NCBI RefSeq assembly: GCF_000829315.1
Contig: NZ_AP013028.1
Coordinates: forward strand, 870,001 to 902,000
Reading direction: 5' to 3'
DNA from: Wolbachia endosymbiont of Cimex lectularius
Lineage (GTDB): Bacteria; Pseudomonadota; Alphaproteobacteria; Rickettsiales; Anaplasmataceae
Length of the DNA: 32,000 nucleotides
Positions 8,699 to 27,009 of the stretch are shown piece after piece (positions within the stretch are counted from its first letter, which is position 1; every line of letters starts with the position of its first letter). The notes below the pieces were generated by a model, which ran no database searches, was not told the DNA's origin, and saw only the letters and a list, made by a program, of their open reading frames with translations. The translations under genes and the position numbers were made by a program.

Positions 8699-9275
8699 CC
8701 AATGGTAATAGGACAAATTAAATTGCCAGTCAACAATGGTGTCATTCCAGCGCTCCCTCCTTCTGTCATCCAAGCGCCTCCTTTTTTGTTATCCAAGTAG
8801 CTGACACTTGCATCTAGGATACTACTTTGGTAATAAATATTTAAGAAATTTACCGAGTGAGAAAAAAGCAAAGGAAGCCCCATGTTAGCTAGTTATTTAC
8901 TTTTGTGTCGAAATATCGGCGTTTTTTTTATTCTAAACGCTTGACGAATGCGACTTAGCTGCAAACGTTTAAAAAATTTACTAAACAGAAAAAAAAGCAA
9001 AAAAAACCCCGGTAGCTAGTTATTTACTATCTATCCTATAATATTGGCGTTTTTTTATGTTTTAAATGACTTATAAGCGCGTTTGAGCTTGTATAGGTAA
9101 AGAACCAGAAGTTTTAAAAAGACATACGGTGCACATAGTGCGAAAAATTAAACATGAGACGCCAGATATACTAAGTTTTTTTGTCATTTAATCTGCACAG
9201 ACTGAAGATAAATAATAGCTTCAATCTTATAATAATGGGTTTGGCGAAAGTTGTCAAGCAGTTTTTTTTATTTCT
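8699..9275. repeat. Composite intergenic repeat locus 1. Module order is R2 core (8699..8745), a roughly 22-bp periodic gtcatccaag-type array (8738..8815), M1 (8803..8853), two ~110-bp sub-units, then a promoter-bearing terminal module (to 9275).
   Basis: Each module aligns by eye to 12877..13060 plus 13684..14197 in the same order. The terminal part also aligns to 22204..22450 in inverted orientation. Confidence 0.85.
9229..9257 (-). promoter_or_regulatory. Sigma70-like promoter inside repeat copy A (TTGACA-17-TATTAT on the minus strand).
   Basis: The reverse complement of 9252..9257 is TTGACA. Seventeen nt downstream on the minus strand, 9234..9229 reads TATTAT. An A-rich tract lies upstream. 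This is homologous to the perfect consensus at 22222..22250. Confidence 0.45.
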
Positions 9276-22117: not shown

Positions 22118-22203
22118 GTTAATATGATAATCAAAACTTGTTTTTTTGTCTACAGCGTTGGAAGCAATAGGTAACAGTGAAAAAAGCTATAACGTCATCC
22201 AAT

Positions 22204-22450
22204 AGAAATAAAAAAAACTACTTGACAACCTTCGCCGTTACCCTTATAATGATACTGAAGCTATTTGTTTAACTTCCCAATCTGTGCACTGCATGTCTTT
22301 TTAAAACTTCGGGTTTTTACCCATACAAGCTGAAACGCGCTTATAAGTCGTTTAAGACATCACCCAACGCCGGATTTTAAAATAGAGAGTGGAATAACTA
22401 GCTACCTCGGGGTTTTATTGTCCTTTTTCCCTGTCTGGTAAATTTCTTAA
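22204..22450 (+). repeat. Copy C of the promoter-bearing repeat. It is inverted relative to copies A and B, has one ~110-bp sub-unit only, and lacks a 64-bp internal segment.
   Basis: Its reverse complement aligns to 8975..9275 and 13900..14197. The segment corresponding to 9136..9199 is absent. Confidence 0.85.
22222..22250 (+). promoter_or_regulatory. Perfect sigma70 consensus promoter (TTGACA-17 nt-TATAAT) with an upstream A-tract, inside repeat copy C.
   Basis: TTGACA lies at 22222..22227, the spacer accttcgccgttaccct (17 nt) follows, and TATAAT lies at 22245..22250. AAATAAAAAAAA at 22207..22218 resembles an UP element. Confidence 0.6.
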
Positions 22451-22606
22451 GCATAAAGGTTATACTAACTTTCGTTATCAAACAAGATACATAATAAACT
22501 CGCTAAACCTCTAATCGTAGGGAAGCTTTTCAATTTGTCCCTGGGATTTGGTATAATAATGGGATTTGATATTAGTATCAATAAATTACTTATAAAAGCA
22601 GATCTT

Positions 22607-24659
22607 ATGGAAAGCAGGGCTAAAGCTTGGTTCGTTTGGCTGATCAGTAACTTGATTGTTATATTCAGCAACATGCAGATAATTTATACTTTATATAAGC
22701 GTAGATCTTGAAAAAGAACTTGGGCTCACGATCGCGCAAGTTGCACTGGCTAACTCAGCGTATAATTGGACTTTTGCCATCTCACAGTTTGTTAGTGGGG
22801 CAATGTTTAATGTTTTTTCCAGTAAAAGAATCTACTTCTTCTCATTATCAACTATGATCCTTGGGTTTCTTGTTCTTATTGATAGTGAAAACTTCTCCCA
22901 TTTGATTTTATCTCAAGTGTTAATTGCAATTGGAGCGTCGTTTGGTTTTATTGGGGCTGCTCATATAAGTAGCACCTGTTTTCCCGTTGCCCAATTTGGG
23001 CTGGTGTTTTCACTAGTGCAGACAATTTCAAGCCTTTCTGCACTGGTAATTCAAATATTGTTCTCTAGCTTTCTCGCTGAAGGGTATATATTGGAAAAAT
23101 CTGATCATGTGCATAATACTACTTGGTGTGTCAATATTTGTGCTTATGTTCTTCTACCCAGAAGCACTCTTAGAACCTGTTTAAAATCTTGGAAATGTGA
23201 GGTAAAGTAAGCATAGATTAATAATGAGGTGTCTATGCAGAAAAGTTATCCAAGTAATATAAGTCAAGAGCAGTTTGAAAAAATCAGGCCAATTTTGGAG
23301 AGTAGCAAGCAGAAAACAAAACCAAGAAAACTTGATTTGTATGACGTATTTTGTGGGGTGTTGTACGTCTTAAAAAGTGGTTGTCAGTGGAGGATGTTAC
23401 CAAAGGGTTTTCCAAGATGGGAAAGCGTATATTACTATTTTCGAGTGTGGAGTAAAAAGAATGGAGAAGAGCCAAGCTTGTTGGAATTAGTCTTAAAAAA
23501 AATTAGTTGGAGAGGTCCGTATCAGCAATGGTCGGAAAGAGAAAACTAGCTTTTGTATAATTGATTCTCAAAGCGTTAAAAACGCAGATACTGCTGAAAA
23601 AAAAAGGCTATGATGCAGGTAAAAAGATTTCAGGGATAAAGCGCCATATTGCAGTTGATACACAAGGTTTGCCACATGCAATTTATGTAACAACGGCAGA
23701 AGCAACTGACCGTAGCAGTGCTGTGAAAATGGTCGAAAATGCTAAAGCAAACCTCTCTGAAGTTAAAAACATACTGGTTGATGCTGGCTACACAGGAGAA
23801 AATTTTGCAACACAAATAAAAGCTATCATTGGTGCGACTGTTGAAGTAATAAGCGAAGTGAGTTACACACTTTCGTCGTATTGCCAAAAAGATGGGTTGT
23901 TGAACGCTCTTTTGCCTGGTTAGAAAAGTGCAGGCGATTGTGGAAAAATTGCGAGCGGAAGCTCAACACTAGCTTACAGATGATAGTCCTCTCCTTCATT
24001 TCTCTCCTGTTACGAAGATTTTAAACAGGTTCTTAGAAAGAAGTTTAGAAAAACACACAATAAAAAGCTCCATAAAAACGGTAATATGTTCTATATTTAC
24101 AGTGCTAAAATTAAAAGATATCTGGATAACCTCAATAGTGGGTGCTATTACTTTTGGAACATTTTTAGCGCTTAACACCTTATGGGCACCGAGGTTGTTG
24201 AGCAACTCAGAACTTGATGCAATGGGATCAGGTATAGCAACTGCAGTGTTATGGCTTGGTCTTGCAATTGGTGCACCGATTGCAGATCGAATCTCAAACT
24301 TATTTAAAAATAGAAAGCATGTAATCTCCGCTTTCGCTCTGCTACAAGGCGTTTCGATTATTATTTTACTATGCAGCCATTTGACGGTTCATATCGTATA
24401 TTCTTGTATGTTAATGTTTGGGTTTTTTGCGGGAGGACATATGCTTAATTTTACTGTTGGCAGTGAAATTGTAGAGCGAAAACGCATTAGCACGTCGTCA
24501 TCTGTTATCAATGGATTTATGTTTATCGTGGGTGGAATCATAGCATCAACGCTAGCACTTTTTACGGATCATCAAATGGCGCTTCTTACAATATTTGCAG
24601 CATTGGCAACTGCCAGTATTTTAAATTATGCTACAAAAGAGACATACCCTAAAAAATAA
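22607..24659 (+). pseudogene. MFS transporter disrupted by two frameshifts and an IS insertion.
   Basis: There are four colinear frame segments: 22607..~22700, ~22683..~23085, ~23085..23172 and 24036..24659. The encoded TM-rich sequence is MFS-like, for example DLEKELGLTIAQVALANSAYNWTFAISQFVSGAMFN. Removing the IS and one TTA restores ...FFYPEALLERSLEKHT... in frame. Confidence 0.8.
23173..24032 (+). mobile_element. IS5-family insertion sequence, copy 1 (860 bp), with a degraded transposase.
   Basis: Terminal inverted repeats are gaacctgtttaaaatctt and aagattttaaacaggttc. TTA direct repeats lie at 23170..23172 and 24033..24035. Relative to copy 2, the transposase reading frames (23229..24024) carry A9 instead of A10 at 23597..23605 and a 1-bp deletion at about 23851. 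Confidence 0.9.
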
Positions 24660-25347: not shown

Positions 25348-25717
25348 GCGCAGTGCAGATGTATGTCATATAGCCGGAGGACTAATTAAGAAAGTGTGAG
25401 CTCACGTTAAAGAATGGTTAAAAAGGTACCCGTGTAAATTCCCAAACATCATGAGAACTCTCTTAATACGTAACTTGCGATTAAGAAAAAATCAATACAT
25501 TCACAGTAGATTCAGCTTATATCTATGTTTTTTGTGTGGATGTTGGAATGGAAATTTACGCAGGCAAAGAAAGAAGAATAGCGAATGTAGTGACTCAGCA
25601 CTGGAGTGAAATAAAAGGATCAGATAGAGACTGGCCAGAAAGGCATGAGATAGATACTGCCGAAATAATGGAATCTTGGCAGCATTGTTTTATTATTGAA
25701 GTTAATGACCGAGGTTA

Positions 25718-26579
25718 GAACCTGTTTAAAATCTTGGAAATGTGAGGTAAAGTAAGCATAGATTAATAATGAGGTGTCTATGCAGAAAAGTTATCCAAGT
25801 AATATAAGTCAAGAGCAGTTTGAAAAAATCAGGCCAATTTTGGAGAGTAGCAAGCAGAAAACAAAACCAAGAAAACTTGATTTGTATGACGTATTTTGTG
25901 GGGTGTTGTACGTCTTAAAAAGTGGTTGTCAGTGGAGGATGTTACCAAAGGGTTTTCCAAGATGGGAAAGCGTATATTACTATTTTCGAGTGTGGAGTAA
26001 AAAGAATGGAGAAGAGCCAAGCTTGTTGGAATTAGTCTTAAAAAAAATTAGTTGGAGAGGTCCGTATCAGCAATGGTCGGAAAGAGAAAACTAGCTTTTA
26101 TATAATTGATTCTCAAAGCGTTAAAAACGCAGATACTGCTGAAAAAAAAAAGGCTATGATGCAGGTAAAAAGATTTCAGGGATAAAGCGCCATATTGCAG
26201 TTGATACACAAGGTTTGCCACATGCAATTTATGTAACAACGGCAGAAGCAACTGACCGTAGCAGTGCTGTGAAAATGGTCGAAAATGCTAAAGCAAACCT
26301 CTCTGAAGTTAAAAACATACTGGTTGATGCTGGCTACACAGGAGAAAATTTTGCAACACAAATAAAAGCTATCATTGGTGCGACTGTTGAAGTAATAAAG
26401 CGAAGTGAGTTACACACTTTCGTCGTATTGCCAAAAAGATGGGTTGTTGAACGCTCTTTTGCCTGGTTAGAAAAGTGCAGGCGATTGTGGAAAAATTGCG
26501 AGCGGAAGCTCAACACTAGCTTACAGATGATAGTCCTCTCCTTCATTTCTCTCCTGTTACGAAGATTTTAAACAGGTTC
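25718..26579 (+). mobile_element. IS5-family insertion sequence, copy 2 (862 bp), the better preserved copy.
   Basis: It has the same terminal inverted repeats as copy 1. TTA direct repeats lie at 25715..25717 and 26580..26582. It differs from copy 1 at only three positions that I could find: one substitution and two homopolymer indels. Confidence 0.92.
25774..26571 (+). CDS. IS5-family DDE transposase encoded in three frame segments joined at poly-A tracts.
   Basis: Segment 1 is 25774..26094 (HTH part, MQKSYPSNISQEQFEKIRPILE...). Segment 2 is ~26048..26185 (LVGEVRISNGRKEKTSFYIIDSQSVKNADTAEKK). Segment 3 is 26143..26571 (GYDAGKKISGIKRHIAVDTQGLPHA...VDAGYTGENF...[16 protein letters not shown]). 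The A8 tract at 26040..26047 and the A10 tract at 26142..26151 sit at the joins. Confidence 0.7.
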
Positions 26580-27009
26580 TTATATCTGTGAAAATGCGGG
26601 AGAAAAGGCTGTTGAGTTCTATGGTTTTGAAAAGAACATGTGTATTGATAGTAAGTATGCAGTTGATGCACCATTTTTGCGGCTGTATAAAGTAGACGCA
26701 GTTATTGATAAACTTGATACTGTAGTAGATAGTAAGTGCCCAATCAACGAAGAAGAAGAAAGTGAAAGTGTTAAAATGAGGCAAGTATTGTTGCCGCTTG
26801 GAGATAGAGAAGGTATAACACATATATTGGGCGTAATTACATTTAAGCTCCTTTAATATGCAATTTTAGCTTGTATTGTAGCTTCAGATTACATATTATA
26901 GTAGTATTGTAGCTTGTAAGTTGCAATACTATTTGATTCTTTAATAAAGTTATTTATGTTACTAACTAATTGCTACTAAAGAATTCAATGATAATGTTTG
27001 TGAATTTAT

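Follow-up and report, generated by a model that had tools for sequence, protein, structure and literature searches.

Why should a perfect sigma-70 promoter lie inside a repeat and face the body of that repeat, and what would be transcribed from it? The question is raised by positions 22204-22450 of a 32,000-nt stretch of the genome of the Wolbachia endosymbiont of Cimex lectularius (contig NZ_AP013028.1, positions 870,001 to 902,000 of the forward strand; hereafter the window, in whose positions all its features are given). The repeat occurs three times in the window, as copies A, B and C, and the perfect promoter belongs to copy C. An earlier note on this DNA had predicted an unannotated transcript here and had proposed that the element either encodes a small non-coding RNA (ncRNA) or acts as a mobile promoter cassette. 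The reading that we favour, with a probability of about 0.7, is that of a non-coding repeat of ~300 bp, similar to MITEs (transposable elements of miniature size with inverted repeats), which has its own sigma-70 promoter and yields multicopy orphan ncRNAs.

In copy C, a promoter scan and an exact search placed the -35 hexamer TTGACA at 22222..22227 and the -10 hexamer TATAAT, 17 nt further on, at 22245..22250 of the plus strand. Along this strand the promoter reads AGAAATAAAAAAAACTAC, TTGACA, the 17-nt spacer ACCTTCGCCGTTACCCT, TATAAT, GATACT and G(22257)AAGC, the G being the predicted transcription start at the 7th nt after the -10 box. The scan gave the full consensus score of 12/12, and TTGACA-17-TATAAT was found exactly once in the window, for which 100 dinucleotide shuffles led to an expectation of 0.01 occurrences; the perfect promoter of the earlier note was thus confirmed. 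Since chance could produce about one such site in a ~1.2-Mb genome of the same AT-rich composition, the 12/12 match alone is weak evidence and the repeat context matters. Alignment of copies A, B and C bore this context out: the promoter lies inside the repeat and is aimed into the repeat body, and the next recognisable start downstream is the ATG at 22607 of a decayed major facilitator superfamily (MFS) gene, which is full of stops and which an IS5-family element divides in two. Copies A and B, on the minus strand, keep TTGACA and the 17-nt spacing together with the -10 boxes TATTAT and TTCAAT, as had been noted. In copy A (8967..9275) the hexamers lie at 9257-9252 and 9234-9229 with a predicted start at 9222; in copy B (13896..14200) they lie at 14189-14184 and 14166-14161 with a predicted start at 14154.

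Conservation across the family was measured in 71 copies from other genomes, which had been picked solely by a core lying over 100 nt beyond the promoter and by sufficient flank. Column identity was 0.99 in the -35 hexamer, 0.94 in the 10 nt before it (A-tract plus CTAC, AAAAAACTAC) and 0.88 in the -10 hexamer (0.94 without the 4th position), compared with 0.73 in the 17-nt spacer, about 0.66 in the discriminator, 0.83 in the transcribed body and 0.43 in the flank outside the repeat. The hexamers are therefore better conserved than the spacer, the body and the flank, so that the outcome named in the earlier note as a refutation did not occur. Among 77 full copies TTGACA was present in 76 and the 17-nt spacing in 74, and the -10 box followed the pattern TATNAT, as TATCAT (36 copies), TATTAT (11) or TATAAT (10). 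The spacer variants form discrete subfamilies, in all of which the hexamers are kept, and the same promoter head also stands in front of clearly diverged bodies. Judged from these alignments, the family-wide pattern is that to be expected of a selected promoter.

Transcription from this promoter is documented in related strains. According to a Cappable-seq study of wMelPop-CLA and wAlbB, the promoter motifs there are TATAAT and the rarer TTGACA, and reads with a mapping quality below 20 were dropped, so that multi-mapping reads were lost (PMC12558409). Table S1 of the same study lists each start site with its sequence context (50 nt upstream, 100 nt downstream), and four wMel 5'-triphosphate start sites in it proved to sit in family members (nhmmer E 5e-23 to 3e-38): 131,390 on the minus strand (40 counts per million, cpm), 528,421 on the minus strand (34 cpm), 713,865 on the plus strand (69 cpm) and 1,067,756 on the plus strand (45 cpm). 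All four starts are the 7th nt after TATCAT, for example at the junction between ...TACTTGACAAGCTTCGCCAGCCCTCTTATCATAAAATT and GAAGCTATT..., and are homologous to G22257 of the window. The starts predicted at 22257 (+), 9222 (-) and 14154 (-) likewise each fall on the 7th nt after the -10 box, where the wMel homologues start. In these homologues the promoter is experimentally active, and copy C itself presumably fires at G22257 as well.

In wAlbB, a decayed copy with two start sites lies upstream of an MFS/ProP gene, and one of these two starts was found inside the central block of the repeat, at the homologue of ...AAGCT/GAAACG. The wMel start 528,421 falls in the hemC/sucB intergenic region; according to Woolfit et al., this region and the one upstream of htpG were picked for their strong intergenic RNA-seq signal (PMC4349823). 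In the parts of these two papers that were available (PMC12558409, PMC4349823) the start sites are not treated as one repeated element. A further wMel start at 915,471, suspected from intergenic sizes, was rejected because its sequence is not a family member.

How large and how old is the family? It was searched for with an exact 26-nt core from mid-element (22324-22349 in copy C, shared by all three window copies and contained in the central block ACCCATACAAGCTGAAACGCGCTTATAAGTCGTTTAAGACA, 22318..22360), which yielded at least 132 matches in 121 sequences, corresponding to at least 120 loci in 7 Wolbachia genomes plus the window. Because this core served as the query, it is by ascertainment that the fetched copies do not vary in it. 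The matches listed all came from Wolbachia, namely wPaur, wTis, wMoz, Wolbachia sp. C61_2 and three termite-associated metagenome-assembled genomes (MAGs); each genome contributed dozens of copies, and the frequent location of matches at contig ends is what a multicopy repeat would produce. Contigs of wMpe and several others likewise end at the repeat. The repeat measures ~250-310 bp (290-310 bp in full copies), with a sharp 5' boundary at the A-tract or ~10 nt before it and a 3' end reading ...GGGRTTTCTTTTGYCTTTTTTTCTGCTTAGTAAATTTCTTAA, after which ~136-nt partial duplicates of the 3' half and other repeat modules often follow.

The position of copy B upstream of htpG is ancient. Its orthologue was found in a group A genome with a profile hidden Markov model of the family (E 1.5e-83; TTGACA-17-TATCAT), a truncated orthologue and a second copy, both decayed, were found by the same model in the supergroup D strain wLsig, and wTis has the orthologous copy as well; the published start-site sequences add family members in wMel (supergroup A) and wAlbB (supergroup B). 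With members in A, B, D and F, the family is older than the split between these supergroups. Between F and A, orthologues of copy B are 75% identical, compared with 64% at four-fold degenerate sites of htpG, and their central block and 3' end are nearly identical. Orthologous rimM loci of group A and group E genomes differed in synteny and were uninformative on copy C. No link with phage WO emerged: when viral contigs were scanned for the 15-nt head of the promoter, the only matches were scattered single ones in unrelated contigs, which were judged to be chance. Literature searches with sequence strings and for Wolbachia MITEs or intergenic repeats returned no description of the element.

With respect to its ends, the element has imperfect terminal inverted repeats of 12 bp, AAAAAAACTACT at 22211-22222 being matched by the reverse complement AAGAAATTTACT of the 3' terminus (22437-22448). 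The two ends matched at a mean of 8.1 of 12 positions, compared with 3.6 +/- 1.65 in controls, of which 0.09% reached 9 or more matches. The -35 box starts at the last base of the 5' inverted repeat but lies outside its symmetric part: on the -35 side the 5' end reads TGACAA, and the 3' end reads AAGCAG. Small, non-coding, multicopy and bounded by terminal inverted repeats, the element is, by its sequence features, MITE-like. Nearest paralogues within a genome were 95% identical in the median and at least 98% identical in 14 of 75 cases, and copy C was 96% identical to its nearest paralogue, which lies in wPaur. The paralogues at 98% or more are compatible with recent copying or gene conversion. 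Window copy B and its wTis counterpart occupy orthologous sites, belong to different subfamilies and are 85% identical. Past rodA, the synteny between the window (9247-9275) and wTis (about 1547-1564 of locus L005) breaks inside the copy A head, wTis keeping AAACTACTTGA and then continuing with unrelated sequence, which suggests a rearrangement or deletion with its breakpoint in the repeat. The near-identical paralogues, the subfamily switch at an orthologous site and this synteny break together indicate ectopic recombination or gene conversion. The element would have propagated in the manner of a non-autonomous DNA transposon, through ectopic recombination, or by both routes. A retro-element mechanism of the type of short interspersed nuclear elements was rejected on logic, because a transcript that starts past the promoter would not copy the promoter, and all copies have one.

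What the promoter transcribes does not look like a message. Stops are dense in all frames of the consensus, subfamily indels are not multiples of three, and a small open reading frame (ORF) in the transcript was discarded as a candidate, copy A having one of 13 codons and copy C none. In Rfam 15 two tRNAs alone passed the gathering threshold in the window, and at permissive thresholds the best scores over copies C and B were at chance level (E of at least 0.19, with bit scores far below threshold). The minimum free energy of copy C was ordinary (z-score -0.43), and the RNAalifold consensus of the 77 copies reached -4.08 kcal/mol with almost no covariation. Four helices were named. One is the +1 hairpin, another a hairpin of TGCAC with GTGCA, and the other two make up a long-range pairing in two parts, between TTGGCG-GTCTTA and TAAGAC...CGCCAA. 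The helices were 91% paired among the 77 copies, which is not above the shuffle control, and a single pair showed double changes; variation in the +1 hairpin was mostly A-U to G-U. In copy C this hairpin (GAAGCTA / TAACTTC, 6-nt loop, 22257..22276) has one C-A mismatch. A terminator scan of the sense strand found no terminator hairpin inside the element before the U-rich 3' tract, and the 3' 50 nt folded at -7.9 kcal/mol compared with -6.9 kcal/mol for shuffles. Of the small ncRNA proposed earlier, the non-coding, unannotated character and the lack of an Rfam match stood, whereas a compact, structured small RNA (sRNA) found no support, and the suggested search for covariation and structure came out negative in the 77 copies. 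Going by these features, the product is a non-coding RNA that would be at most loosely structured.

Altogether, the following course of events appears plausible. The promoter, made up of A-tract, TTGACA, 17 nt and TATNAT, would sit just inside the imperfect 12-bp 5' inverted repeat; RNA polymerase would start at the 7th nt after the -10 box (G22257) and transcribe the repeat body. The resulting orphan ncRNA would form a short 5' hairpin and run on into a U-rich tract without a strong terminator hairpin, with some transcripts probably reading through into downstream sequence. Most copies would then be selfish or neutral transcription units, in which the promoter is kept as part of a propagating master sequence, and occasional effects on neighbours would arise by read-through or interference.

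Other explanations assign the conservation to a different cause. If the copies formed a functional multicopy sRNA family, an RNA of ~200-300 nt would act in trans or in cis (in stress regulation, or as precursor of small Wolbachia RNAs in host cells), and selection on this RNA would keep the promoter and the central block. The retention of copy B upstream of htpG across supergroups is in line with this idea, as is the near-identity of its central block and 3' end between F and A relative to the four-fold sites of htpG; furthermore, 4 h after transfer to either 34 C or 21 C, two wMel family starts were up by 1.4-2.4 log2. In the candidate helices, most substitutions were G-U compatible on the sense strand, and columns 71-76 and 203-208 were 97% paired, but these G-U counts reflect few independent events, and the weak consensus fold, the ordinary folding energy, the lacking terminator hairpin and the lacking Rfam match described above all speak against a structured regulator. 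Large indels are also tolerated, such as the deletion of ~62 nt after 22282 by which copy C differs from copies A and B, and different subfamilies at orthologous sites point to turnover by gene conversion. We therefore consider a functional sRNA family unlikely. A broader version, in which a pan-Wolbachia, positionally conserved RNA family has a biological role, for instance as a temperature- or handling-responsive pool, as transcriptional insulators near genes such as htpG or as precursors of host-exported small RNAs, with expansion in supergroup F and termite-associated lineages, is quite improbable and is offered as speculation.

The mobile promoter cassette of the earlier note, an element that would supply a strong promoter to a downstream gene, here the MFS gene at 22607, draws on the co-orientation of copy C with this gene 350 nt upstream of it, on the wAlbB copy whose mapped starts lie ~440-560 nt upstream of a co-oriented MFS/ProP transporter, and on a same-strand terminase fragment with a ribosome-binding site that follows copy B. 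Without an efficient terminator, read-through at individual loci is likely. Orientation, however, was random over the family, the nearest downstream ORF being co-oriented in 43 cases and opposed in 44 (binomial p = 1.0; rough ORF calls), copies A and B face convergent genes, and the MFS gene, a pseudogene here, has an extended -10 of its own (22549-22557) 50 nt before its ATG. As a general function, the cassette is accordingly not supported and very improbable. Least credible of all is a mere promoter look-alike, in which the conserved head would be a protein-binding or recombination site, such as a transposase-bound inverted repeat, with no transcriptional effect. The A-tract and CTACT do belong to the imperfect terminal inverted repeat, and promoter-like matches are in general no commoner than in shuffled sequence; yet the -35 box lies outside the symmetric part, the -10 box is held at 17 nt across a variable spacer, and the 5'-triphosphate starts 7 nt after the -10 box in four wMel copies largely refute it.

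Several observations nevertheless weigh against the preferred reading of a promoter-bearing, MITE-like repeat. The evidence for transcription comes from supergroup A and B homologues, and the wMel family starts, at 34-69 cpm, are below the gene-promoter median of 111-135 cpm. The -10 box of copy B, TTCAAT, is without the key A at position 2, and therefore not every copy can be active. The A-tract AAATAAAAAAAA (22206..22217, plus strand), 'UP-like' in the earlier note, resembles a proximal UP subsite and, together with CTAC, is 94% conserved; at the same time it forms the outer portion of the inverted repeat at the 5' terminus, so that its conservation may stem either from UP function or from the inverted repeat. 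At no register was there a target duplication of at least 3 nt, the 3' boundary being blurred by adjoining modules, and a 2-nt AA or TA duplication is indistinguishable from background. All 109 cross-genome flank comparisons showed the element to be present, a biased count as the loci were fetched via the element, and no autonomous partner was found, the IS5-family element of the window having unrelated ends. With neither an empty site nor an autonomous partner, mobility is not demonstrated. In addition, conservation between supergroups could come in part from inter-strain recombination.

Repeats of the Correia type are short and dispersed, contain functional promoter hexamers and can change transcription around their insertion. 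Correia elements measure 100-155 bp and have clear inverted repeats, a TA duplication and promoters at their ends that fire outward. In Neisseria, these repeat-enclosed elements have reportedly been termed 'putative mobile promoters' (work attributed to Siddique et al. 2011 and Matus-Garcia et al. 2012). Unlike them, the Wolbachia repeat has a promoter that fires inward through the element, and its orientation to neighbours is random.

The closest known analogue is QMITE1 of Coxiella burnetii, from which the sRNAs CbsR3 and CbsR13 derive (Wachter et al. 2018, PMC5896051). QMITE1 is likewise a non-coding repeat (300-400 bp, about 50 copies) of an obligate intracellular bacterium, has sigma-70 promoters, is transcribed at a number of loci, keeps its positions from strain to strain and yields orphan sRNAs (PMC5896051). 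It belongs to another host lineage, no sequence relationship is expected, and it has direct repeats of 2-3 nt and often overlaps ORFs, whereas the Wolbachia copies are intergenic and a target duplication was not found. The Wolbachia family is further set apart by its single, strongly conserved, inward-facing near-consensus promoter and by its presence in several supergroups.

Within Wolbachia, the wMel genome paper listed four multicopy families with inverted repeats that are unlike known elements, among them 'repeat family 8' with 45 copies (Wu et al. 2004, PMC368164). Next to the window copies come partial duplicates of ~136 nt and hairpin repeats of 23 nt which, by description only, resemble the periods of the variable number tandem repeats VNTR-105 and VNTR-141 (Riegler et al. 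2012, PMC3287509). Neither of these two papers describes a promoter or a transcript. According to Woolfit et al. (2015, PMC4349823), the single-copy RNAs ncrwmel01 and ncrwmel02 have 5' ends at 67,860 and 1,039,620. As far as these sources go, ncrwmel01, ncrwmel02 and the Cappable-seq orphan starts are alike in being intergenic, sigma-70-driven orphan Wolbachia transcripts; the four family starts lie at other loci than ncrwmel01 and ncrwmel02, a comparison made by coordinates only.

To recognise a catalogued but unexplained repeat as a self-contained transcription unit is of practical use. Wolbachia is genetically intractable, and very few non-coding transcripts have been reported from it. The repeat would account for several 'orphan' or 'internal' starts and strongly transcribed intergenic regions in the wMel and wAlbB data, and pipelines that use uniquely mapping RNA reads would under-count a whole transcript class. 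It provides a circumscribed group of RNAs in which regulatory or host-directed roles can be looked for, as well as a natural near-consensus Wolbachia promoter with A-tract that could serve in reporter or transformation constructs. It also flags sequences that break assemblies and mediate inter-strain rearrangement and gene conversion. Beside QMITE1, it would be a second, phylogenetically distant case of transposon-like repeats that seed sRNA loci in obligate intracellular bacteria.

Turning to the neighbourhoods, the window, which is supergroup-F-like, has 36% G+C and encodes, among others, a protein with a TomO C-terminal domain, HtpG, RimM, EF-P and RodA; its RimM shares 92% identity with RimM of wMpe, a supergroup F strain, and several Wolbachia MAG assemblies contain exactly this protein. 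Copy C is a short variant with head, body and 3' end (22196..22450, plus strand; delimited by alignment with A and B and by the inverted-repeat pairs) and sits between rimM, which is divergent on the minus strand, and the MFS transporter gene. Its T-rich 3' end CGGGGTTTTATTGTCCTTTTTCCCTGTCTGGTAAATTTCTTAA (22409..22450) agrees with the conserved 3' consensus. A tail module separate from the repeat follows on the same strand (22451..22560) and is common to the regions 3' of copies A and B and of a wTis copy (L114); it holds the extended -10 TGG TATAAT (TGGTATAAT) of the MFS gene mentioned above. The module reads AATTTGTCC(T)ATTACCAT...TGGTATAA, and related sequence was noted near 8700 (-) and 12870 (-). 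Of 14 occurrences of the tail motif in the fetched loci, 11 lay downstream of a head and in its orientation.

The decayed MFS gene (22607..24659, plus strand) has many stops and a Pfam MFS_1 match on both fragments, and is context rather than part of the element. The IS5-family element that splits it (23170-24035, with DDE transposase ORFs between the fragments) has a near-identical second copy at 25715-26582, both with DUF4096 and DDE ORFs and inverted ends of ~49 nt. As the copy at 23170-24035 is missing from an otherwise 100% identical contig (L121, GCA_051710405.1), this insertion is very recent or polymorphic.

Copy A begins 10 nt past the rodA stop codon and points toward the 3' end of ubiA. 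Opposite its head, at 9239-9268 on the plus strand, a terminator-like hairpin GTTTGGCGAAAGTTGTCAAGC followed by T8 was seen. A role of the antisense head as terminator for convergent genes was rejected for the family, since this arrangement occurs in copy A only and hairpins across the family fold at -3.5 kcal/mol compared with -2.4 kcal/mol when shuffled.

Copy B is divergent from htpG, is followed by a partial duplicate of its own 3' half (13763-13803) and points into a repeat-rich stretch with the terminase fragment. The latter is a 129-aa ORF with ribosome-binding site on the same strand 3' of copy B (13286-13675, minus strand) that matches a phage terminase large subunit (phrog_38, E 1e-20), of which it is an N-terminal fragment; a wTis locus (L076) has the same arrangement of the element and then ATGGAAAACATAAACTTTCT. 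On the other side of copy B, the region upstream of htpG (14255-14305, plus strand) is highly conserved in supergroups F, A and D. It contains CCTTGAAA, a heat-shock-type -35, then 17 nt and TAAATT, and the homologue of the mapped wMel htpG start, which has a 26-nt leader, is 14292. The 922-aa ORF adjoining htpG (16248-19016, plus strand) carries the hydrophobic C-terminal domain of TomO together with a region of weak lipase resemblance and is the counterpart of the wMel effector TomO (WD1278).

Short palindromic repeats of the form CCAGTG CTTGACA CTGG...GATGACA were also observed in the window, with TTGACA in the loop and a TATTA-type box ~17 nt on. They lie at about 13335-13365 (-), 139-224, 8782-8867, 13703-13788 and 12939-13060. 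Sequences near-identical to them (TGTCATTCCAGTGCTTGACACTGGAATCC...) make up the 50 nt upstream of mapped wMel and wAlbB starts. Because near-identical sequence precedes mapped starts, these palindromic repeats may be a second class of Wolbachia repeats with active promoters.

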